A program made the position numbers and the translations under genes. 64,000 nt of DNA, from assembly GCA_046760305.1 (NCBI GenBank), contig JBHIDX010000007.1, positions 5,185-69,184 of the forward strand, read 5' to 3'. Below the pieces are notes generated by a model. The model had not been told where the DNA came from. It did no database searches and worked only from the letters and a program-made list of their open reading frames with translations. Shown here in pieces: positions 1,718 through 42,760 of this stretch. Source of the DNA: Candidatus Aminicenantales bacterium (GTDB lineage Bacteria; Acidobacteriota; Aminicenantia; Aminicenantales; Aminicenantaceae). Numbering within the stretch: the stretch's first letter is position 1; every line of letters starts with the position of its first letter.

Positions 1718-4700
1718 ATGGAGCTATCATTCATTCATCTCCACAATCATTCAGAATTCAGCATCCTGGATGGAGCTTTAAAGGTCGAAGAACTTGTTGA
1801 GGCAGCCTACAGGTATAATATGCCTGCTGTAGGGCTTTCTGACCACGGAAATATATTTGCTGCTGTTAGCTTTTTTAAAAAGGCTAGGGAGAGAGGTATA
1901 AAGCCCATTCTCGGGTGCGAAATGTATGTGGCTCCAGGTAGCCGTTTCGAAAAGAAGTCTTCTCCAAAGGATACGAATCACTTCCATCTGATTGTTTTCG
2001 TCAAGAATGAGCAGGGATACAGAAATCTCTGCCAACTCATCACCAACAGTTATCTCGAGGGCTTTTACTATAAGCCCAGGATAGACAAGGAGCTCCTTGC
2101 CCGTCACAGTGAAGGTTTAATAGGACTTTCAGCCTGCCTGAAAGGAGAAATCAATCATAATTTACTCCGGGGACGCGAGGAGGAGGCAAAACAAGTAGCT
2201 CTTGAGTACGCCGCCCTCTTCCCTGAGGGAGATTTTTATATCGAGCTTCAGGACAACGGGCTTCCTGAACAGAAGAAGATAAATCCTCTCCTCGTCGAGC
2301 TCGCTCAAGAACTTAAGCTTCCTCTAGTGGCTACGAGTGATACCCATTATCTCACCAGAGAAGACGCTAAAACCCATGACATTCTACTCTGTATCCAGAC
2401 CAATAAGAAAGTGAGTGACCAGGATAGAATTCGTTTCTCAAGCGATGAGTTTTATTTCAGATCTCCTCAAGAGATGATAGAGATTTTCAAGGATGTGCCC
2501 GAAGCTATAAAGAACACGGCTCGGATTGCTTCTCAGTGTGATTTCGAATTTCCTCAATCAGGGTATTTCCTGCCCCAGTTCAAGACTCCTGAAGGGATTT
2601 CGCTTGAGGAATATTTTTCTCAGGTGGTGAAGGAGAGATTTAAGGAGCGCCTAAAAACTCTGCGAAAAAGAGAAGAGAGAGGAGATGTGCGTCATTCCCT
2701 AGATGAATATGAAGATAGACTAGAAAAAGAGATGAAGCTCATCAAGGAAATGGGGTTTGAGGGTTATTTTCTTATTGTCTGGGATCTTATCCGTGAGGCG
2801 AAAGCGAGGAATATCCCTGTGGGTCCTGGTAGGGGTTCTGCTGCAGGCAGTCTGCTTGCTTATTGCCTGGGGATTACAGACATAGACCCTCTTGAGTATG
2901 ACCTTCTTTTTGAGAGGTTTCTAAACCCAGAGAGAATAAGCCTGCCTGATATTGATATTGATTTTTGTGGCCGACGTAGGGAAGAAGTTCTTTCCTACGT
3001 TACCCAGAAGTATGGTCAGGAGAATGTTTGCCAGATAATTACCTTTGGCACCATGGCTGCTCGGGCAGCAGTAAGAGATGTAGGCCGAGCTCTTGAGGTT
3101 CCACTTCCCGAGGTTGACAGAATAGCTAAGATGATTCCTCCACTTGGTCCTGAGGCGACGATAGAGGGAGCCCTGAAGAATATTCCACAGCTTCAGGAGT
3201 TAAGAGATAAAAATCCCAGAATTGCCCAGCTTCTCTCCATTGCCCAGAAGCTTGAGGGACAGGTGCGGCATCCCTCGATTCATGCTGCAGGAATTGTTAT
3301 TGCGCCTAAGCCGATGGTAGAGTTTATGCCTCTCTACCAATCAGCTAAGGGAGAAATCACTACCCAGTTTCCAATGCAGGATATCGAGGCTCTGGGCTTG
3401 CTCAAAATGGACCTTCTCGGGTTGCGGAATCTGACAGTTATCCATGATACAGTCGAGCTGGTTGAGAAAAACACGGGAGAGAAGATAAACATCGATGAGC
3501 TTTCCCTGGATGACGAGAAGACATTCAAACTCTTCCAGACAGGAAACACCGATGGAGTTTTCCAATTTGAAAGCCCGGGGATGAAAGACCTTCTGCGCAA
3601 TTTTAAGCCTGAAAATTTCAGGGATTTAATCGCTCTCAACGCCCTTCACCGTCCTGGGCCTCTGAAAAGCGGCATGACTGATGAGTTCATAAAACGCAAG
3701 CACCATCCTGAGATGGTGAAATTTGAGTGTCCCGAGCTGGAGCCAATCCTGAAAGAAACGCAGGGCATAATCGTCTACCAAGAACAGGTGATGAGGATTG
3801 CCACCGACCTGGCCGGCTTTTCTCTTGCTGAAGCAGATGTTCTGAGGAAGGCGATGGGTAAAAAGGTAACAAGCATGATGAGGGCTCAGAAGAAAAGGTT
3901 TATTCAGGGAGCCAAGAAAAAAGGGTTGTCTCAGGCTAAAGCCGAGAAGATATTCGAGCAGATAAAATATTTTGCAGGCTACGGGTTTAATAAATCTCAC
4001 AGCGCTGCCTATGCCTATCTTGCCTATCAGACTGCTTATCTCAAGGCCCACTACCCTTCTTATTTTCTGGCTGCGCTCCTCACTTCTGAGGCTGAGAGGG
4101 GAGCTACTTCCCAGGTAGTTAAGTATATTCATGAGTGCGGGGAGATGGGGATTAAAGTCCTTCCTCCTGATATAAATGCCAGTGATTTTAATTTCACCGT
4201 TCAGGATGGGTGTATTCGTTTCGGTCTTTCAGCCGTGAAGAATGTAGGAGAGGGAGCAGTTCGCTCCCTGATCAGGGCCAGGGAGAAAAAAGGCAAGTTC
4301 GAAACCCCTTTCGATATCTGTCAGGAAGTGGATTCCAGAGTTGTCAACAGGAAGGTGCTTGAGAGTCTGATTAAAGCGGGAGCCTTTGATTCTCTTGGAT
4401 GGAAGAGATCTCAATGCTTCCATATGATAGATAAAATGATTGATTATTCCCACCAAATTCAGAAAGTGAAGGCTTCAAAGCAAAACTTGCTCTTTGGTGA
4501 GAATCATATTGGAACACCTGAAGTGCCGGATGAAGTAAAGCAGATGCGGGAGTGGGATGAGTCGCTTCTTCTCTCCTATGAGAAAGATGCGGTAGGTTTT
4601 TTTATCACCGGGCATCCTCTTGCTCAGGTGGCCTCCAAGCTTCAGAAATTGGTTTCTCATACACTTGAAAGCCTTGATGAAGAGGAGGATTTTAACAGCG

Positions 4701-5200
4701 AGGTCAGGGTTGCTGGAATTATTGCTTCTCTTAAGCCTATTAAAACCAGGAAAGATGAGAGAATGGCGGCTTTTGTCCTTGAAGACCTAAGCGACAGGAT
4801 AGAAGTTGTTGTTTTTCCCGATAATTATAAAAAATATTTTGAATTTCTCCGAGAGGACCAGCTAGTCTGGGTAAGAGGACGTTTTATTGGCGAGGGTGAG
4901 AACAGAAAAATACACTGTATGGAAATGATGCCTCTGGCTGAAGCTTTCCAGAAGCAGGCAAAAAGGGTGATTCTGAGGATATTTCTTCCTGGGCTTGAGG
5001 AGTCAGTGTTTAAAGAGCTTAGGGTAATGCTGGAAAAATATAGTGGGGATTGTCCCCTCTTTTTTGAGCTTGAAACTCCCCCTGCCTACAAATTAGTAGC
5101 ACAATCGACAGAAATCCAGGGAGTAACTCCATCTGAAGATTTCACCAAAAATATTGAACGATTATTAGGCGAAGAATCAGTTTTCATTGAGTATAGATAG
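1718..5200 (+). CDS. dnaE: DNA polymerase III alpha subunit
   Basis: PHP domain start MELSFIHLHNHSEFS. Polymerase core motifs present and length is about 1160 aa. A GGAG SD sits at 1706-1709 upstream of ATG 1718. The ORF-track start at 1634 is an upstream extension overlapping guaA. Confidence 0.93.
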   Translation: MELSFIHLHNHSEFSILDGALKVEELVEAAYRYNMPAVGLSDHGNIFAAVSFFKKARERGIKPILGCEMYVAPGSRFEKKSSPKDTNHFHLIVFVKNEQGYRNLCQLITNSYLEGFYYKPRIDKELLARHSEGLIGLSACLKGEINHNLLRGREEEAKQVALEYAALFPEGDFYIELQDNGLPEQKKINPLLVELAQELKLPLVATSDTHYLTREDAKTHDILLCIQTNKKVSDQDRIRFSSDEFYFRSPQEMIEIFKDVPEAIKNTARIASQCDFEFPQSGYFLPQFKTPEGISLEEYFSQVVKERFKERLKTLRKREERGDVRHSLDEYEDRLEKEMKLIKEMGFEGYFLIVWDLIREAKARNIPVGPGRGSAAGSLLAYCLGITDIDPLEYDLLFERFLNPERISLPDIDIDFCGRRREEVLSYVTQKYGQENVCQIITFGTMAARAAVRDVGRALEVPLPEVDRIAKMIPPLGPEATIEGALKNIPQLQELRDKNPRIAQLLSIAQKLEGQVRHPSIHAAGIVIAPKPMVEFMPLYQSAKGEITTQFPMQDIEALGLLKMDLLGLRNLTVIHDTVELVEKNTGEKINIDELSLDDEKTFKLFQTGNTDGVFQFESPGMKDLLRNFKPENFRDLIALNALHRPGPLKSGMTDEFIKRKHHPEMVKFECPELEPILKETQGIIVYQEQVMRIATDLAGFSLAEADVLRKAMGKKVTSMMRAQKKRFIQGAKKKGLSQAKAEKIFEQIKYFAGYGFNKSHSAAYAYLAYQTAYLKAHYPSYFLAALLTSEAERGATSQVVKYIHECGEMGIKVLPPDINASDFNFTVQDGCIRFGLSAVKNVGEGAVRSLIRAREKKGKFETPFDICQEVDSRVVNRKVLESLIKAGAFDSLGWKRSQCFHMIDKMIDYSHQIQKVKASKQNLLFGENHIGTPEVPDEVKQMREWDESLLLSYEKDAVGFFITGHPLAQVASKLQKLVSHTLESLDEEEDFNSEVRVAGIIASLKPIKTRKDERMAAFVLEDLSDRIEVVVFPDNYKKYFEFLREDQLVWVRGRFIGEGENRKIHCMEMMPLAEAFQKQAKRVILRIFLPGLEESVFKELRVMLEKYSGDCPLFFELETPPAYKLVAQSTEIQGVTPSEDFTKNIERLLGEESVFIEYR

Positions 5201-5214
5201 AGGTAAAAAGGCTA

Positions 5215-5847
5215 TTGAAGTATAAACTCATCGTAGCTGATGGAAGTCCTTCGGTGCAGAAAGTGGTGGAGCTTTCTTTCCCAGCCTCGGATTTTGAAAT
5301 ATTTTCTTTTGATGATACCAACGAGGTTATTGAGAATATCTCAAGGATTGAGCCTGATGCTATCCTTCTCAGTCTTTCTCTCCCCGGTAAAGACGTTTAC
5401 GAAGTGGCTTTTTTTCTCAGAAACCACAGGGAGTTGAATAAAATTCCTATCTTTCTCCTGAGGGGGGCGTTCGAAAGCATTGATTACCAGAAGGTAGCCA
5501 GCATTGACTATGATGAGATTGTAAACAAGCCCTTTGATTCAGTGAAACTTGCGCGGAAAGTGAGAGAAGCAATTGAGAGGAAGAGAAGCCCTGTTACTTT
5601 TCCTGAAGAGCCATTTCCAGAGGAGTCAGTCTCGGCTCATGAAGAGGGAGAAGAGAAAGAAAAAAGGGTGGGAGATGTTGAAAAACTTATTGCCCAACGT
5701 ATGAGAGAAGCAGAGAGGAACCTTGAGAAAAGTCTCAAGGAAGAGCTGAGGCAAGAACTTAGAGAGGAGCTCAGGAAGGAATTGGAAGAGCTTAGAAAGA
5801 GGAAAGTCAAAATACCTTCTGGTTCAGAGGAAAAATTGTTAAAATAG
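5215..5847 (+). CDS. Receiver (REC) domain protein with acidic coiled-coil C-terminus; phospho-acceptor Asp replaced by Ser
   Basis: CheY-like fold signature (LIVADGS…ILLSLSLPGKD…IVNKPFD). The conserved K is present. S occupies the D57-equivalent position and there is a single D in the beta1 acidic pair. The C-terminal 100 aa is E/K/R-rich coiled coil. TTG start. Confidence 0.6.
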   Translation: MKYKLIVADGSPSVQKVVELSFPASDFEIFSFDDTNEVIENISRIEPDAILLSLSLPGKDVYEVAFFLRNHRELNKIPIFLLRGAFESIDYQKVASIDYDEIVNKPFDSVKLARKVREAIERKRSPVTFPEEPFPEESVSAHEEGEEKEKRVGDVEKLIAQRMREAERNLEKSLKEELRQELREELRKELEELRKRKVKIPSGSEEKLLK

Positions 5848-10850: not shown

Positions 10851-10945
10851 TGTTTAGTTTTTTTATAGGGGGAGAGAGTTTGCTGATAGTGAGGGCAAGA
10901 AGCAGGGATTTTATCAGGAGAAAACCCAGGTCTGAATAGAGAACG

Positions 10946-12031
10946 ATGAAAACTTCTTGTTTTGAAGCGGTTATCGATTTTAATTTTCTACCGGCGAGCG
11001 AACCGTTTTCAGCTCTCATTGTCTCCAAAGCAGGCAAATCCCACGCCTCGCTAGCCATCTATAAGCTTCAGGAAGAGAGAAAAAGTAAGGCTTTCCTGGT
11101 TCAGATTCATAGCCAAAACCCTCTTTCTCTCAAGTGGGGTGATGTGTTTGAGGTTATCCAGGAGGGAGGAACACTCCTGGGCAGGGGAAGAGTGATAAAC
11201 CCCTTTTCCTCCAGAGTGAGAGGCAAAAAACTGAAGAAGAGGTTAGGCTTGCTTTTCCAGCTTGAGGGAGATGAGAAAGAAATGATTACCGCTCTAGCTC
11301 GGGAAAGAGGGATTAGAGGGTTGAGAGAAAAAGAGATTCTCGATTTTGCTCGAATATCCAGAGCCTCATTGAGAAGACTGGCAGAGGAACTTGAGGCAGA
11401 AGATAAGGTGAGGATTATCTCTTTTTCTCCTCTCTTCATTATCTGGCAGCAGAGTCTTTGTTATCTTGAGGAGAAGCTACTTGCCTATCTTGAGCAGTTT
11501 CATTCGAAACATCCCGGGGAGAGAGGTATCTCGAGGGCGAGGATAAAAAAAAGGTTTAATCTCTCTCAGAAGGTGCTCCTCTTGGTTCTTGAGCGTCTGA
11601 TCAGAGAGAAGAAGGTAGAGAAATCAGAAGAGATTATTGCCCTTGCTTCTTTTAAACTTTCCCCTACTCCTGAAGAGGAACGAGTACTTTCTAAACTCGA
11701 GGAGATGTGTTTAAGAGGAGAGTTGAGGAGTGTTTCTCAGGAAGAGCTGGCACGAACTTTTCACCTCTCACCGGAGAAGCTCAACAAGATGCTTTCTCTC
11801 CTGGTTGAGCGTAAAAAAATAGTCCAAGGAAAAGAAGGATTCTTTATCCACTCAAAATGGCTGGAGGAGACAGTTACCAAGGTGAGAAGCTTAGGGAAAA
11901 AGGAACTTACTGTCACTGATTTTAAAACGATGACAGGACTCAGCCGGAAATATGCCATTCCTCTCCTCGAACTTCTCGACCAGATGGGCGTAACTCGCAG
12001 GGTAAGCCCTTCGCGTCGGGAAATTATTTAA
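10946..12031 (+). CDS. SelB-like winged-helix protein lacking the GTPase domain
   Basis: N-terminus resembles the EF/SelB beta-barrel domain III (GDVFEVIQEGGTLLGRGRVINP). It is followed by four WH-like repeats. The C-terminal repeat carries the SelB WH4 signature (TGLSRKYAIPLLELLDQMGVTRRV). No G1-G4 GTPase motifs anywhere in the protein. Confidence 0.6.
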   Translation: MKTSCFEAVIDFNFLPASEPFSALIVSKAGKSHASLAIYKLQEERKSKAFLVQIHSQNPLSLKWGDVFEVIQEGGTLLGRGRVINPFSSRVRGKKLKKRLGLLFQLEGDEKEMITALARERGIRGLREKEILDFARISRASLRRLAEELEAEDKVRIISFSPLFIIWQQSLCYLEEKLLAYLEQFHSKHPGERGISRARIKKRFNLSQKVLLLVLERLIREKKVEKSEEIIALASFKLSPTPEEERVLSKLEEMCLRGELRSVSQEELARTFHLSPEKLNKMLSLLVERKKIVQGKEGFFIHSKWLEETVTKVRSLGKKELTVTDFKTMTGLSRKYAIPLLELLDQMGVTRRVSPSRREII

Positions 12032-12160
12032 ACCTGAACTATTAGCTTGAAAATGCATGTCATCGCGAGCGACCGAAGGGAGCGTGGCGATCTCATTTTC
12101 ATCGGTCGTGGGTGGCGTTGTCGCCATGATAAATTACCTAAAATGTGGCACAAAATCATT
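12032..12160. repeat. Intergenic nested-palindrome repeat, short copy (same family as 40867-41200)
   Basis: Shares the modules CCTGAACTATTAG.T.GAAAAT, GTCATYGCGAGCG and TCGTGGGTGGCG-(4 nt loop)-TCGCCATGATAAATTACCT with the 40.9 kb copy. Starts right after a + strand stop codon. Confidence 0.7.
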
Positions 12161-12236
12161 TTTATGGTTTTTCTTTCATTCAACCGATATATTTTATAGA
12201 ATTGTCTCCATCTTAATCTAAGCAAAGGAGGAGAAA

Positions 12237-13064
12237 ATGAGCAACATCCAGACTTATGTTGATAAGGCTGTTGAGTTGGCTATGAGTTATGTGCCGAAAT
12301 TGCTGCTGGCAATAGTTGTCCTTGTTCTCGGTTTCTGGATTATCAAGCTTGTGGTGAAGGGATTAAATCGTTTTCTTGAGAGGAGCAAAGTTGAGATTTC
12401 TTTACAGAAATTTCTCAGCAGTCTGGTTGGTATTTTATTGAAGGTTATGTTGCTCATCAGTGTGGCTTCAATGCTGGGCATTGCCACCACTTCCTTTGTA
12501 GCCATGTTGGGTGCAGCAGGTCTTGCTGTCGGCTTGGCTCTACAGGGAAGTCTTGCCAACTTTGCCGGAGGGGTTTTGATTTTGTTCTTCAAGCCATTCA
12601 AGGTAGGAGATGTTATCGATGCCCAGGGATTTACAGGGAAAGTTCACTCTATTCAGGTCTTTCACACTGTGTTAAAGACTTATGACAACAGAACTATCAT
12701 CATTCCTAACGGCAGCCTATCAAACAACAGTATTACAAACTTTAGTACCGAACCAACGCGGCGTCTCGACATGACCTTTGGCATCAGCTACGGTGATGAT
12801 ATGGCTAAAGCGAAGAATATTCTGAAGAAACTAGTGGATGAGGATGAACGTATTCTAAAAGAACCACAACCATCAATCGTTGTATCCGAGCTTGCCGACA
12901 GCTCGGTGAACATTTCGGTTAGAATATGGTGTCCTACGGCTGACTACTGGAATGTAAATTTTGACATGCAGGAAAAGGTGAAGATGGCCTTTGACAAGGA
13001 AGGAATTTCCATTCCTTTTCCCCAGAGGGATGTACATCTTTTTCGAGAAGGAAAAAACACTTAA
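12237..13064 (+). CDS. Small-conductance mechanosensitive channel (MscS family)
   Basis: Three N-terminal TM helices, then the MscS beta-domain (…GDVIDAQGFTGKVHSIQVFHTVLKTYDNRTIIIPNG…). AAGGAGG SD precedes it. Confidence 0.85.
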   Translation: MSNIQTYVDKAVELAMSYVPKLLLAIVVLVLGFWIIKLVVKGLNRFLERSKVEISLQKFLSSLVGILLKVMLLISVASMLGIATTSFVAMLGAAGLAVGLALQGSLANFAGGVLILFFKPFKVGDVIDAQGFTGKVHSIQVFHTVLKTYDNRTIIIPNGSLSNNSITNFSTEPTRRLDMTFGISYGDDMAKAKNILKKLVDEDERILKEPQPSIVVSELADSSVNISVRIWCPTADYWNVNFDMQEKVKMAFDKEGISIPFPQRDVHLFREGKNT

Positions 13065-19173: not shown

Positions 19174-19653
19174 GTCCCGGCGTAAGCATCTTTTTTCCGT
19201 GATAATCAAACATAATATTAAAAGGAAGAAGAAAAAAGAAAAAGAAAGGAAAAAGAAAGAAGAAAGAAGAAAGGGGACGGGCCGCAGCAATTTATTTATA
19301 ATCAACAAATTACGTAATATTTTAACCCTAAAAAAGGCCTTAAATGCGATTTTTAAGGGCAAAAATCAATTTTAAACTTGAAGTGATTTTAAGAAAATCC
19401 TTAAAGCCCATTTTTGACCCCAAAAATGAAGTCTAAGGCATAAAATCGGCTTCATATTTGCATCTATCTTACTGATAACACTGAAATTAGTGAGGCCCGT
19501 CCCCTCTTATCCCTCTTATCCTTCTCTTATCCTTATCTTCTTATCTTATACCTTCCTCTTATACCTTATACCTCTTATACCCCTCTTATAACATAACCGT
19601 ACTCTTATAACCCTCTTATAATTATCACGCAAAAAAGATGCTTCCTGTCCCGG
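19174..19653. mobile_element. MITE-like non-autonomous element / large imperfect palindrome
   Basis: 21-bp terminal inverted repeats, GCATCTTTTTTCCGTGATAAT (19186-19206) and ATTATCACGCAAAAAAGATGC (19621-19641), with one mismatch. Flanking 7-bp direct repeats GTCCCGG at 19174-19180 and 19647-19653. Inside are a polypurine tract, GGGACGGGCC, an AT-rich core, GGCCCGTCCC, and a polypyrimidine tract with about 8 CCTCTTATA tandem units. No transposase. Confidence 0.55.
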
Positions 19654-39236: not shown

Positions 39237-40028
39237 GTGGGTAAAGATAGAGCGGACAGGATTCTTGTCACCAGGGGGCTTGCTGCCAGCCGGCAGAAAG
39301 CGCAGGCGCTCATCATGGCAGGACTTGTGTTTGCGGGGGAAAGAAGAATTGATAAAGCCGGAATGTTGGTCGATGAAGAGAGCGATATCTTCCTTAAAGA
39401 AAAACTCCCCTATGTCAGTCGAGGCGGGCTTAAGCTCGAGGAGGCTCTGGACCGCTTTGAGATTTCTGTCGAGGGGAAGACAACAGCCGACCTCGGGTCA
39501 TCGACAGGAGGGTTTACCGATTGTCTTCTCCAGCGTGGCGCCCGGAGAGTCTATGCTGTGGATGTCGACATCAGACAGCTGGACTGGAAGTTGAGGCAGG
39601 ACAGCCGGGTTATATGTCTTGAGAAAAACGCCCGCTATCTGGATAAAGAAGATTTCAGTCACACTCTTGACCTGGTGACGATGGATTTATCGTTTATCTC
39701 GATAATCAAGGTTCTACCCGCAATAAAGAGATTCCTCGGAAACGGTTTTCTTCTTTCTCTTGTCAAGCCTCAGTTTGAAGCTGGTCCTCGCCAGGTGGGG
39801 AAGAAGGGAATAGTCAGGGACGCCGGCCTTCATGAGGAAGTGTTGGTAAAGGTTATCGCTGCAGCTCAAGCCATGGGCTTTGCTCTCAGAAAGCTGATGA
39901 AATGCTCTCTTCCAGGAGCCAGAGGAAATCGTGAGTTTTTTGCCCTCTGGTCACTGGGGGAGAGAAGCCTGACTTCTGGGGAGGAGATGAGACTGGTCAA
40001 GGAGGCAGTTCGGGATGGAAAAAATTGA
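39237..40028 (+). CDS. tlyA: TlyA family rRNA 2'-O-methyltransferase (hemolysin A-like)
   Basis: S4 domain, then FtsJ-like MTase (DLGSSTGGFTD). GTG start with GGGAGGAG SD. Confidence 0.85.
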   Translation: MGKDRADRILVTRGLAASRQKAQALIMAGLVFAGERRIDKAGMLVDEESDIFLKEKLPYVSRGGLKLEEALDRFEISVEGKTTADLGSSTGGFTDCLLQRGARRVYAVDVDIRQLDWKLRQDSRVICLEKNARYLDKEDFSHTLDLVTMDLSFISIIKVLPAIKRFLGNGFLLSLVKPQFEAGPRQVGKKGIVRDAGLHEEVLVKVIAAAQAMGFALRKLMKCSLPGARGNREFFALWSLGERSLTSGEEMRLVKEAVRDGKN

Positions 40029-40866
40029 GCGCATTGGTCTTGTCATTAAACCCCATGCTCCTCATATTGAGAGGGTGTTAGAAGAGCTTATCAACTTTCT
40101 GGAAAAGAAGGGAATAACCTGTTTTCTAGAAGAGATAGCTGCTCAAAAACTCGGCAAGGGGAAGGGAATGACACGGGAAAAGCTCCCGGAGAGTGTTGAT
40201 CTGATTATCGTCCTTGGGGGTGACGGCACTCTACTCAGCGTGGCTCACCTTGCTGCCCTGAAAAATGTGCCTGTGCTCGGGGTTAACATGGGAAGCCTTG
40301 GTTTCCTGACCGAGGTACCCCTGGATGAAATGTACCTTACCCTTGAGGCTTTCTTTGCAGGGAATGAGGAAATTGTAAGCAGGCGGAGACTGCTGGAAGC
40401 AAGAGCAAAGGGGAAGCTCTATTACTGTCTTAACGATGTGGTCATAAATAAAGGAGCGCTTGCCAGGATGATCCAGGTTGCAATCTGGATTGACGGCAAG
40501 GAAATTGCAACTCTTAAAGCAGATGGCCTCATCATTTCCACTCCAACCGGCACCACCGGCTATTCGCTCTCTGCCGGTGGTCCTATCCTTAAGCCTTACA
40601 TCCCTGCCATTGTGCTCGCTCCTATCTGCCCTCATACACTTTCCTTCCGTCCCATGGTTATCTCCTCTGAATCCCTAGTGAGGGTCAGACTGCTTACAGG
40701 AGGAGAGGAAGTGTATCTTACTCTGGACGGCCAGCGGGGGGATTTACTGGTCAAGAATGACGAGGTAAAAGTGAAGAAGGCGGATTTCCAGTTTAAACTC
40801 ATATCCTCACCCCAGAGGAATTATTTTGACCTGCTTAAGGAGAAGCTTGGCTGGGGGCAGAAATGA
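40015..40866 (+). CDS. nadK: NAD kinase
   Basis: GGDGTLL motif. NE/D short motif. 283 aa. Confidence 0.9.
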   Translation: MEKIERIGLVIKPHAPHIERVLEELINFLEKKGITCFLEEIAAQKLGKGKGMTREKLPESVDLIIVLGGDGTLLSVAHLAALKNVPVLGVNMGSLGFLTEVPLDEMYLTLEAFFAGNEEIVSRRRLLEARAKGKLYYCLNDVVINKGALARMIQVAIWIDGKEIATLKADGLIISTPTGTTGYSLSAGGPILKPYIPAIVLAPICPHTLSFRPMVISSESLVRVRLLTGGEEVYLTLDGQRGDLLVKNDEVKVKKADFQFKLISSPQRNYFDLLKEKLGWGQK

Positions 40867-41200
40867 AAACAATGCCCTGACCTTAACCGGCCTGAACTAT
40901 TAGTTCGAAAATAGCATTTTCATTTGTCGTGGGTGGCGCACTCGCCATGATAAATTACCTAGAAAATGCGCCATGTCATTGCGAGCGGAGCGAATCAATC
41001 TGTCGTTGCGAGCCCTGAAAGGGCGTGGCAATCCCATCATCTCCGGGAGTGAATGAGGTTGCCACGCTTCGCTCGCAACGGAGGATTGCCACGGCACTTC
41101 GTGCCTCGCAGAGACGAGAGGCCGCCAATGCATGGGACTGCTTCGTCGCTCCGCTTCTCGCAATGACAAGGCCAACATCATTTTCATACCACTATTATCA
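40867..41200. repeat. Intergenic nested-palindrome repeat, long copy (same family as 12032-12160)
   Basis: Outer inverted repeat CATGTCATTGCGAGCGGAGCGAA (40972-) pairs with TTCGTCGCTCCGCTTCTCGCAATGACAAG (41141-). Inner hairpin CGTTGCGAGC…GGCGTGGCAA pairs with TTGCCACGCTTCGCTCGCAACG. Shares the 5' module and the TGGCG-loop-CGCCA hairpin with the 12 kb copy. The frame-shadow ORFs translate to an ARND-containing peptide. Confidence 0.75.
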
Positions 41201-41223
41201 CACTTTTTAGAGCCAGGCTCAGG

Positions 41224-41252
41224 TTGACATTTCCCGAGGGTAAAATTATGAT
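41224..41252 (+). promoter_or_regulatory. Putative sigma70 promoter for glgA (near-leaderless)
   Basis: TTGACA-N17-TATGAT. The -10 element ends 11 nt before ATG 41264. No SD. Confidence 0.4.
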
Positions 41253-41263
41253 TAATTCCTGTC

Positions 41264-42760
41264 ATGAATCAGAAAATAAGAGTACTTTATGTCTCCTCCG
41301 AGCTGGCTCCTTTTGCTAAATCAGGTGAGATGGCAGATGTAGCCTCGTCTCTTCCCAAGTATCTTTCCGCTCTGGGGGTTGAAGTTGCTGTCGTTATGCC
41401 TCGCTACAGGCGGCCAGAGATAGACTCGCTTGACATGGACCTGGTTGAAGATAAATTACCCGTTTCTCTCGGGGAAGAGAGAGTAAAAGCCCGTGCTTTT
41501 AAAGCTGAGCCAGGGCATTACAGAATTTACCTCATCGATAACCCCAAATACTTCCTTAGAGAGAACATTTATGGTACTGAAAAAGGCGATTATCTCGATA
41601 ACGACGAGAGGTTTATCTTCTTCAATCGGGCTGTGCTCGAGTTTGTATTAAAGAAAAAAATGGAAGTGGATATCATTCACTGTAACAACTGGCCCACCGC
41701 ACTCATCCCCCTTTTCCTTAAAACCCACTATGCCCATAAAGCTCATTTCAGGAGCACGGCTACAGTCCTTACCTTGCATAACATCGCCTACCAGGGGGAT
41801 TTTCCTCCTGAGACCCTCTCTCTCACCGGTCTTGACTGGAGTTATTTTAATCCTCAACAGCTTTCCTTTGATGGGAGGTTTAATTTTCTCAAAGCAGGGA
41901 TCATGTTTTCTGATGTGCTCAACACGGTCAGCTCCACCTACAAGAGAGAAATTCAGAGGGAGGAACACAGCTTCGGACTCGACCGGCTGCTCAAAAAGCG
42001 CCGGGATGTCTTTTTTAGCATCAGAAACGGGATTGACTGCGAGGTCTGGAATCCAGAGACAGACCCCTTCATTGCGGCCAATTATTCTCTCTCAGACCTG
42101 AAGCCAAAAAGGGAATGCAAGCTGAACCTAATCGACGAGTTCGGGCTTAAGATGGCGGAAAAGACTCCTCTCCTGGGGGTGGTTTCTTACCTCACCTCTT
42201 ACAAAGGGTTCGATATTCTGTTCGATGTCGTTGATGAATTGATGGCCATGGAGGTGGGGCTTGTTGTTCTTGGAAAGGGAGAGGAGAAATACGGAAATGC
42301 CCTGTTAAAACTCAGAGAAAGGTATCCTCAGAGAATAGGAGTAAAGCTCGAGATGAGCCAGTCATTGGCTCACAAAGTTGCCGCAGGAGCTGATATGTTG
42401 CTCATACCCTCATTGTACGAACCCTGTGGGTTGCATCAGCTTTACAGCTTTCGCTACGGAACAGTTCCAGTTGTCAGGGCAACCGGAGGCCTGAGGGAAA
42501 CGGTCAGGCCATTCAATCCCCGGACAGGGAGAGGAAACGGTTTTGTTTTTAAAGAATATTCTGCCCGCGCTTTTCTCCACACTTTCAAGACTGCGCTTCA
42601 GTACTACAGGCAGCCGCCTCTCTGGCTGAAGATTATGAAGGCAGGTCTTGAGGAAGATTTTTCGTGGGATACAGCAGCCCGCAAATATATCAGGCTCTAC
42701 AGAAAAGCTCTCAAATTAAGAAGAGGAGGAAAATCTTGGTCGAAAAAATTACCGAGGTAA
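41264..42760 (+). CDS. glgA: Glycogen synthase (ADP-glucose type)
   Basis: N-terminal SSELAPFAKSGEMADV motif, GT5/GT1 domains. 498 aa. Confidence 0.9.
   Translation: MNQKIRVLYVSSELAPFAKSGEMADVASSLPKYLSALGVEVAVVMPRYRRPEIDSLDMDLVEDKLPVSLGEERVKARAFKAEPGHYRIYLIDNPKYFLRENIYGTEKGDYLDNDERFIFFNRAVLEFVLKKKMEVDIIHCNNWPTALIPLFLKTHYAHKAHFRSTATVLTLHNIAYQGDFPPETLSLTGLDWSYFNPQQLSFDGRFNFLKAGIMFSDVLNTVSSTYKREIQREEHSFGLDRLLKKRRDVFFSIRNGIDCEVWNPETDPFIAANYSLSDLKPKRECKLNLIDEFGLKMAEKTPLLGVVSYLTSYKGFDILFDVVDELMAMEVGLVVLGKGEEKYGNALLKLRERYPQRIGVKLEMSQSLAHKVAAGADMLLIPSLYEPCGLHQLYSFRYGTVPVVRATGGLRETVRPFNPRTGRGNGFVFKEYSARAFLHTFKTALQYYRQPPLWLKIMKAGLEEDFSWDTAARKYIRLYRKALKLRRGGKSWSKKLPR

Follow-up and report, generated by a model that had tools for sequence, protein, structure and literature searches.

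Why do two intergenic spacers 29 kb apart in a 64,000-nt stretch of a Candidatus Aminicenantales genome (contig JBHIDX010000007.1; the whole stretch is called the window below) look alike, and what are they? The longer one, the 40.9 kb copy, is the + strand spacer 40891-41195 between ppnK (NAD kinase, 40015-40866) and glgA (start at 41264), and it sets in 24 nt past the ppnK TGA stop (40864-40866). The shorter one, the 12 kb copy, is the + strand spacer 12033-12167 between a 361-aa open reading frame (ORF; 10946-12031, + strand) and a gene for an MscS-type channel (start at 12237), and it sets in 1 nt past the TAA of that ORF (12029-12031). Both had been described, in what we call the sequence-only reading, as a single repeat family. 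We found two components instead: a lineage-specific module of about 100 nt (module A), and short hairpin units (B units) of a pan-bacterial family whose members elsewhere flank genes for small GIY-YIG nucleases. The spacers are probably a non-coding mosaic, comparable to the bacterial interspersed mosaic elements (BIMEs) and the Neisseria intergenic mosaic elements (NIMEs), in which mostly decayed, GIY-YIG-associated hairpin units are nested in module A.

The likeness of the two spacers is real. A 50-nt core is 88% identical between them (12094-12143 against 40915-40964), they have a 22-nt left block in common (12033-12054 and 40891-40912), and the diagnostic strings TCGCCATGATAAATTACCT and CCTGAACTATTAGYTYGAAAAT each occur exactly twice in the 64 kb, where shuffled sequence leads one to expect 0.00 and 0.02 occurrences. 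Two + strand spacers with conserved modules behind stop codons are thus what the sequence-only reading had said they were. Pairwise alignment further showed that both are colinear over about 100 nt once the B units are taken out. Hence, since removing the GTCATTGCGAG-type units renders the spacers colinear, they hold two components and not one family.

The B units are hairpins of 26-35 nt with the form YGTC-ATTGC-GAG-(variable GC hairpin)-GTG/GAA-GCAAT-CYC. One of them (U0) lies in the 12 kb copy and five lie in the 40.9 kb copy between 40975 and 41168, two on the + strand (U1 and U2) and three on the - strand (U3 to U5). The tag is TGTC in U0, U1, U2 and U5, is CGTC in U4 and has been lost in U3; GTC together with the C after GCAAT is kept in U0, U1, U2, U4 and U5. 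The basal stem of U0, ATCGC/GCGAT, is a compensatory variant of ATTGC/GCAAT that also occurs in another Aminicenantes metagenome-assembled genome (MAG; locus L045), and in U3 a compensatory GTTGC/GCAAC keeps the basal stem paired around a GCGAAGC mini-hairpin. U2 is the best preserved and folds as DNA at -7.0 kcal/mol (z -2.4). U1 is degenerate, with a TCAATC tail and no stable hairpin of its own, and U4 has an intact apical hairpin on a degenerate basal stem. The array is GC-rich (60% against 47% for the window). With up to 2 mismatches allowed, the window has 4 GTCATTGCGAGCG-like heads, against an expectation of 0.87, and they are found solely at these loci. Three other TTGCGAG heptamers (224, 7207 and 17824) lie inside genes without a GTC tag and tail, and we set them aside as chance matches.

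Because U1/U5 and U2/U4 (with U3) are inverted copies of one unit, the long copy folds as a hairpin within a hairpin, with U5 and U1 as its outer stem. Folded as RNA, it reaches -151.6 kcal/mol, compared with -115.3 ± 5.7 kcal/mol for shuffled sequence (z -6.4; 0 of 100 shuffles as good). The nested fold that had been proposed therefore holds, and only the stems of more than 20 bp ascribed to it need correction, as the inverted arms are 33 nt in length with 76% complementarity, so that the stems, though long, are imperfect. The whole short copy is no more structured than its shuffles (z -0.27). In the same way, the likeness to repetitive extragenic palindromic elements (REPs) is borne out for the GTCATTGCGAGCG units, with their YGTC tag, A-T-first palindrome, C-rich tail and inverted pairs.

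Module A is A/T-rich (42% GC), has two copies in the window, follows the pattern CATTTTCAT-N2-GTCGTGGGTGGCG-N3-TCGCCATGATAAATTACCTA and contains three small hairpins, h1 (GAAAAT-loop-ATTTTC), h2 (TGGCG-N4-CGCCA) and h3 ((G)AAAATG-loop-CATTTT(C)). The h1 loop is filled by a B unit at 12 kb and is empty at 40.9 kb, and the h3 loop shows the reverse (Table 1). Both loci thus combine module A with B units in different arrangements, as BIME- and NIME-type mosaics do. The h2 stem is present in both copies with different loops, as previously noted; however, selection on structure cannot be concluded from it, because there are only two copies of a 5-bp stem and no compensatory change within the stem. 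Covariation was found in the B units instead.

Table 1. Positions in the window of module A, its hairpins, the B units and associated features.
Feature	Position	Strand	Remarks
Module A left part and core, 40.9 kb copy	40891..40974	+	50-nt core, diagnostic strings, alignment
h1, 40.9 kb copy	40907-40921	+	GAAAAT-AGC-ATTTTC; loop without B unit
h2, 40.9 kb copy	40934-40947	+	TGGCG-CACT-CGCCA
h3 left arm, 40.9 kb copy	40962-40968	+	GAAAATG
B unit U1	40975..41000	+	GTCATTGCGAGCGGAGCGAATCAATC, preceded by T (TGTC tag)
B unit U2, best preserved	41002..41035	+	GTC-GTTGC-GAG-CCCTGAAAGGG-CGTG-GCAAT-CCC
B unit U3	41055..41082	-	minus-strand TCC-GTTGC-GAG-CGAAGCG-TG-GCAAC-CTC
B unit U4	41083..41116	-	minus-strand CGTC-TCTGC-GAG-GCACGAAGTGC-CGTG-GCAAT-CC; inverted partner of U2
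B unit U5, long form	41134..41168	-	minus-strand TGTC-ATTGC-GAG-AAGCGGAGCGAC-GAA-GCAGT-CCC; inverted partner of U1
Module A right part, 40.9 kb copy	41169..41195	+	alignment to the 12 kb copy resumes here
h3 right arm, 40.9 kb copy	41179-41185	+	CATTTTC; B array 40975-41168 wholly within the h3 loop
Module A left part, 12 kb copy	12033..12058	+	CCTGAACTATTAGCTTGAAAATGCAT; h1 left arm GAAAAT 12049-12054
B unit U0	12059..12094	+	GTC-ATCGC-GAG-CGACCGAAGGGAGCG-TG-GCGAT-CTC, preceded by T (TGTC); inserted in the h1 loop
Module A core and right part, 12 kb copy	12095..12167	+	h1 right arm ATTTTC 12095-12100
h2, 12 kb copy	12113-12126	+	TGGCG-TTGT-CGCCA
h3, 12 kb copy	12140-12162	+	AAAATG-11 nt-CATTTT; loop without B unit
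121-aa ORF over 40.9 kb copy	40900..41265	-	spurious; without homologue at E <= 10
65-aa ORF over 12 kb copy	12028..12225	-	spurious; likeness to the 121-aa ORF from module A identity
glgA promoter TTGACA-17 nt-TATGAT	41224..41252	+	11/12 matches; outside the element, marks its downstream limit

How far do the B units reach beyond this genome? A pattern of 22 specified bases, taken from the window units and run over GTDB contigs with one genome per species, matched at least 120 stretches. Among the matches listed, near-identical units occur in at least 10 bacterial phyla, the hosts belonging to the Alpha-, Beta- and Gammaproteobacteria, Desulfobacterota, Chloroflexota, Nitrospirota, Planctomycetota, Bacteroidota, Bacillota, Armatimonadota, Fibrobacterota and Aminicenantes; they include Bradyrhizobium, sphingomonads, Legionellales, Comamonadaceae, Desulfomonilaceae, Dehalococcoidia, Chryseobacterium, Hymenobacter, Oscillospiraceae, Armatimonadota, Chitinispirillales and another Aminicenantes MAG. 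The listed matches follow either the consensus YGTCATTGCGAGCG-N-AGCGAAGCAATCCAG or the longer GTCATTGCGAGGAGCG-N-AGCGACGAAGCAATC, with T (251/535) or C (246/535) before the GTC. The tail is CCA(G) in most of the proteobacterial matches; other phyla, like the window, have CTC or CCC. Inverted pairs with their tags outward make up 128 of the 235 adjacent pairs among these matches, at a median span of 85 nt. One layout departs from these usual inverted pairs: at 897-992 of a locus in an Eubacteriales Family XIII MAG (L079), three B-type units stand in direct tandem with a 35-36-nt period, followed by a degenerate fourth.

In the folded unit, a conserved internal loop separates the 5-bp basal stem from an apical stem of 2-8 bp, whose loop has 3-7 nt. 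Among the matches listed, the GAG on the 5' side of the internal loop is invariant in 168/168 distinct units and its 3' counterpart is GAA in 136 of them (else GTG or GCG), and the same 168 units carry 71 different apical stems, counted by their 5' arms. The apical arms covary, as in GGCGC-GAA-GCGCC and CCGC-GCA-GCGG, in stems of unrelated sequence of up to 8 bp, and the basal stem has compensatory variants (ATC/GAT, GTT/AAC and ACT/AGT; likewise in U0, U3 and L045). Hence, compensatory changes support the fold of the B unit.

Which nucleic acid folds? G-T wobbles in the basal stem number 13 on the tag strand and 2 on the opposite strand, a bias hinting at the folding of one particular strand. 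The commonest tip of the short form is GCG-N-AGC (GCGAAGC in 43 units, GCGCAGC in 29, GCGTAGC in 15 and GCGGAGC in 8), which we take to be a GNA-triloop DNA mini-hairpin; in the window, GCGAAGC is present in U3 and CGAAG in U0 and U4. Such mini-hairpins, d(GCGAAGC) and d(GCGNAGC), were reportedly found to be extraordinarily stable by Hirao, Yoshizawa and co-workers in the 1990s; they are a structural motif and, unlike the B units, no genetic element. A tip of this kind suggests that the folded form of the unit is single-stranded DNA. In Rfam, nothing lay at the element at the gathering threshold (one chance miRNA match had E 0.81) and no family lay at B units in 18 other loci, and searching the literature by sequence string returned no relevant papers.

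We found a partner gene next to the units. A GIY-YIG ORF is present at 4 of the 120 listed matches of the DNA pattern; at three of them (L035, L041 and L110) it is flanked by ATTGCGAG-type units with their tags outward and at the fourth by units of the related ATTCTGAG type. All four ORFs encode 95-98 aa and match Pfam PF01541 at E 1e-15 to 1e-18. A metagenome scan seeded with these proteins, and not with DNA, returned 80 loci. A unit head lies within 200 nt upstream of the GIY-YIG gene at 56/76 metagenomic loci, a reverse-complement head lies within 200 nt downstream at 64/79, and 50 of 75 metagenomic genes for single-domain GIY-YIG proteins of about 95 aa are flanked on both sides, compared with a chance expectation that we estimate at about 2e-4 per flank. 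The GIY tyrosine, the YIG tyrosine and the glutamate are spaced 11 and 47 residues apart, which is the spacing of Y6, Y17 and E64 in SsnA, a 94-aa single-domain GIY-YIG nuclease of Neisseria (Nat Commun 2025, PMC11893778). The nearest solved structure is the UPF0213 GIY-YIG protein 1zg2, a weak match (E 8e-4). Judged from these sequences, the protein partner of the B units, which the sequence-only reading had not foreseen, is likely a single-domain GIY-YIG nuclease.

This partner also bears on another origin for the units, namely that they are classical REPs, or REP doublets of the REPIN type, mobilised by a REP-associated tyrosine transposase (RAYT) of the IS200/IS605-type Y1 class. Short palindromic extragenic repeats in inverted pairs do resemble REPINs. 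However, the tag is YGTC and not GTAG, the gene flanked by B units is a GIY-YIG gene, and for the CGTC-tagged REPs, to which we return below, neither a dedicated transposase nor a tyrosine transposase flanked by the repeats was found (Di Nocera 2013, PMC3733652). Mobilisation by a RAYT is thus very improbable.

Two of the GIY-YIG loci have features of their own. At 3677-4591 of locus L118, a gene of the same clade is flanked by different units, TGTCATTCTGAG...GAAGAATC on one side and CCTCAGGATGACA on the other, and this difference in unit type suggests several co-varying classes of nuclease and repeat specificity. At 4879-5595 of locus L041 (Planctomycetota, CAYWBA010000025.1), the unit-GIY-YIG-unit cassette lies within a direct duplication of about 110 nt that, by translation, looks like the 5' end of pheT (MNVSYNWLKELVEFDLTPEEL...); the upstream copy meets a premature stop and the downstream copy carries the gene on. 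The duplication is either a long target duplication or the scar of a gene conversion, and may bear on how cassettes insert.

How did the 40.9 kb element come to lie between ppnK and glgA? In two relatives with the same gene order (L007 and L008), the ppnK-glgA spacer is just 72 nt long, and it bears a TTGACA-17 nt-TATGAT promoter with the hexamers and spacing of the glgA promoter in the window. Because the relatives have the same promoter without the element, the element is an insertion rather than a conserved regulatory region. In a further relative (L006; Candidatus Aminicenantes, GCA_012974965.1), the same spacer is occupied at 10854-11164 by an insert of a different kind, roughly 310 nt in length and bounded by 15-nt terminal inverted repeats (GGTTTTTGGGAGTGG / CCACTCCCAAAAACC), over which a spurious 69-aa ORF has been called. 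Small non-coding elements thus seem to have landed repeatedly in the ppnK-glgA spacer.

Might the elements instead work primarily in RNA, as 3'-UTR structures that terminate or protect the upstream mRNA (of ppnK and of the ORF ending at 12031)? That both begin within 1-24 nt of a + strand stop codon and precede the next promoter fits this role, as does the excess structure of the long copy; moreover, CGTC-tagged REPs are generally found near the 3' end of the ORF that precedes them (PMC3733652), and some E. coli REPs have been shown to act in this way. However, we found no intrinsic terminator (GC-rich hairpin with a T-run) in 40867-41200 or 12031-12236; the sole terminator-like match (40804-40819) falls within ppnK, and the number of such matches is what shuffled sequence gives. 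The 12 kb copy folds no better than its shuffles, the 72-nt spacer of the relatives does without the element, and SsnA has no action on RNA (PMC11893778). A role in RNA also leaves the conservation of the unit sequence across phyla and the flanking of GIY-YIG genes unexplained. Hence, a primary role of this kind is unlikely, and it could coexist as a side effect of what we regard as an inserted mosaic.

Both spacers are crossed by minus-strand ORFs (121 and 65 aa), which the sequence-only reading took for annotation artefacts, and our homology search agrees. Neither ORF has a homologue among 5.8 billion proteins, and all open frames of module A, concatenated, had no match in the same collection. 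That both frames are open and have the peptide LGNLSWR(V/Q)RHPR(Q/P)MKM in common is all that speaks for two related small proteins; however, 88% DNA identity gives such likeness in every frame, the frames cross hairpin repeats, and the orthologous spacer of the relatives has only 72 nt. The probability that they are real proteins is close to nil, and that interpretation is effectively refuted. Hence, the ORFs at 40900-41265 and 12028-12225 should not be called as genes, and B-type hairpin units are probably the source of numerous spurious hypothetical proteins annotated in MAGs of many phyla.

Could module A be the functional DNA or RNA element, with the B units as incidental passengers? It might serve a dimeric regulator as operator (TGGCG-N4-CGCCA), give rise to a small RNA or hold a minus-strand gene for a small peptide (MASAPPTTNENAIFELIVQAG). 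The 88% identity of the 50-nt core, with its differences clustered in a hairpin loop, the fold of the 40.9 kb core (40905-40972 reaches -13.2 kcal/mol as DNA, z -3.5) and the lack of a match to any known repeat all point this way. Against them, module A sits upstream of the glgA promoter and not between promoter and gene, is missing from the orthologous spacer of the relatives, has no match in Rfam and no protein match in any frame, and no stem of it is backed by compensatory change; in addition, the B insertion frameshifts the 21-aa ORF in the 12 kb copy (78-aa ORF). We regard such a function as quite improbable and continue to read the spacers as a mosaic.

Several other identities for module A were rejected on inspection of the sequence. 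It is not a sigma-54 promoter, as the GG/GC spacing is wrong. It is not a dif/Xer site, having a palindrome centre of 4 nt and not 6-8 nt and two direct copies, and the 29 kb between the copies consists of syntenic housekeeping genes; the same synteny speaks against the att sites of an island. It is not a diverged B unit, for it has no basal stem. The suggestion that the elements are remnants of miniature inverted-repeat transposable elements fails for module A, which has no convincing terminal inverted repeat.

Searches for relatives of module A were negative within their scope: the exact pattern GGCG-N4-CGCCATGATAAATTACC is absent from GTDB species genomes and JGI metagenomes, the exact patterns GTGGGTGGCG-N4-CGCCATGATAAAT and CCTGAACTATTAG-N3-GAAAAT are absent from viral contigs, and blastn of the whole spacer against plasmids gave no match. 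Logan contigs of the same organism (sample SRR29324587; the ppnK and MscS contigs are each present in 4 samples) break inside the element: the end of L001 falls at 40925, and L003 and L002 begin at 12111 and 41081, respectively. The breaks (40925/40926, 41080/41081 and 12110/12111) are at or beside the common GTCGTGGGTGGCG. They give a weak hint of further copies of module A, since the two known copies have no more than 20 identical bases in common, which falls short of k = 31, and the breaks are explained equally well by strain microdiversity; a coverage drop at hairpins may also account for them.

Taken as a mosaic, the spacers would have arisen as follows. The full-length form, as seen elsewhere, is a pair of inverted, tags-outward units around a gene for a single-domain GIY-YIG protein of about 95 aa. 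The unit strand would fold when it becomes single-stranded, in replication, repair or DNA uptake, and the cognate nuclease would bind the folded unit and cut a few nt 5' of the tag, both steps being modelled on SsnA in Neisseria. Units and pairs without the gene would be its non-autonomous derivatives, building up in the spacers that follow genes. The mosaic is inserted between the stop codon of one gene and the promoter of the next, and the 40.9 kb array (++ / ---) would represent successive nested insertions that are now mostly degenerate. By the same analogy, an Ssn-type nuclease may recognise the copies in the window, and any effects on ppnK or glgA transcripts would be a by-product.

Several observations weigh against this account. 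The window has no GIY-YIG ORF of the flanked clade within its 64 kb, so a cognate nuclease in this genome is putative, and the kinship of the flanked proteins to SsnA is suggested by size and residue spacing. Only U0, U2 and U3 still fold as predicted; because U1, U4 and U5 are degenerate, the 40.9 kb array may be inert. Only two copies of module A are known, and none of the collections searched contained a relative. It may be mobile, or a carrier module or landing site like the RS modules of NIMEs, because B units occupy a GAAAATG/CATTTTC hairpin loop, and not the same one at both loci. As a general rule, however, insertion into flanking palindromes does not hold, since complementary runs of at least 6 bp in the outer flanks are a minority pattern (11% of B pairs vs 3.8% of controls). 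Finally, the pattern HGTCWYN(0-2)YYVSBRHN(0-5)WNVSBRGN(0-2)RNCYNB, which describes the Ssn-related motifs (SRM) that resemble the SsnA target NTS, matches NTS and none of U0-U5; it matched neither B-family consensus and had 0 matches in the window.

The filled and empty hairpins of the two paralogous copies form a small natural experiment on where B units insert. One possible reading of it, to which we give a small chance, is that module A is an undescribed landing pad and that the filled and empty h1 and h3 record two independent insertions into A/T-rich hairpin loops, directly 3' of CAT. If this were true generally, it would give a first concrete indication of the way in which CGTC/Ssn-type repeats spread: they would insert themselves into the single-stranded loops of extruded hairpins. 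A sequence subtype missed by the SRM pattern, and with it probably an Ssn specificity class, would thereby be defined as well. The element in the window is itself an ordinary, largely decayed repeat cluster. Its wider interest is that it extends the CGTC/TGTC-tagged, Ssn-type repeats to the Aminicenantes and leads to a widespread subtype, ATTGCGAG...GCAATC, which lies outside the SRM pattern and flanks two thirds of the sampled GIY-YIG loci. The GIY-YIG genes flanked by B units are candidate pairs of nuclease and target for enzymes that cut single-stranded DNA.

Two further observations concern the surroundings. At 19184-19643 lies an intergenic region of about 460 nt bounded by a 23-nt inverted repeat with 96% complementarity (AAGCATCTTTTTTCCGTGATAAT / ATTATCACGCAAAAAAGATGCTT); purine-rich GAAAG tandem repeats at 19221-19273 are mirrored by CTCTTAT(C/A)C repeats at 19502-19590, and a further 45-nt inverted repeat lies inside. 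This region has no kinship with modules A and B; it may represent the other repeat family of the sequence-only reading. The NAD kinase of the window is a 100% match to a Candidatus Aminicenantales protein in NCBI, and its next relatives are at most 79% identical. One homologue (P0034; 283 aa, 75% identical, with Pfam NAD_kinase domains) from a Candidatus Aminicenantes MAG is named 'transposase' in NCBI/nr, which is evidently a mis-annotation.

Among known systems, the B units are close to the CGTC-tagged REPs, which have a CGTC, TGTC or CCTC tag, A-T-first stems and a CCA tail, occur mostly as inverted dimers and sometimes lie inside other palindromic modules; their superfamily includes dRS3 of Neisseria and RPE-4 and RPE-6 of Rickettsia, and CGTC-1 of Bradyrhizobium has atypical loops (PMC3733652). 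Both kinds have an unpaired CGTC/TGTC tag, A-T and T-A first pairs and a C-rich tail, form inverted dimers, lie between genes near the 3' ends of ORFs in several phyla and are occasionally associated with other palindromic target modules. They seem to differ in architecture: CGTC REPs have a stem of 8-9 contiguous bp with a 4-5-nt loop, whereas B units have a 5-bp basal stem, a GAG/GAA internal loop and a free apical hairpin, and outside the Proteobacteria B units end in CTC or CCC where CGTC REPs end mostly in CCA. Aminicenantes/Acidobacteriota, Chloroflexota, Nitrospirota and Bacillota lie outside the five phyla listed for CGTC repeats (PMC3733652), and the text and supplements of that paper contain neither the ATTGCGAG type nor its peptides.

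The closest functional parallel is the Ssn system. In Neisseria, NTS (CGTCATTCCCGCGMAVGCGGGAATCYRG) is bound as single-stranded DNA and cut a few nt upstream by SsnA, whose own gene is flanked by NTS repeats; cleavage and binding depend critically on the GTC that precedes the palindrome and on the C that follows it, and SRM flank Ssn homologues across phyla (PMC11893778). NTS, SRM and B units have in common the frame CGTC-ATT...AAT-C(YRG), with GTC 5' and C 3' of the palindrome, the layout of inverted repeats on both sides of a GIY-YIG gene of about 94-95 aa (as in NTS-ssnA-NTS), the spread across phyla and many copies without a gene. Flanking on both sides is seen for B units at two thirds of the loci counted above and for SRM at 42% (PMC11893778). 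The palindromes differ, ATTGC...GCAAT with an internal loop in B units and ATTCCCGCG...CGCGGGAAT in NTS, and the biochemistry comes from NTS and SsnA.

REPINs and their RAYTs (Bertels and Rainey 2011; Nunvar 2010) offer the same combination of non-autonomous inverted hairpin doublets with a flanked single-copy gene, whose enzyme is presumed to mobilise or process them. However, they pair a GTAG tag with an HUH Y1 transposase where B units pair a YGTC tag with a GIY-YIG nuclease, and REPIN sequences are lineage-specific and vertically inherited, whereas the B unit is near-identical across phyla. At the level of the whole spacer, the nearest counterparts are the BIMEs of E. coli and the NIMEs of Neisseria (dRS3 with RS modules), in which hairpin repeats are likewise joined to other non-coding modules downstream of genes, with units in both orientations and larger secondary structures. 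Module A is unlike any known partner module of BIMEs or NIMEs, and the B units sit inside its own hairpin loops.

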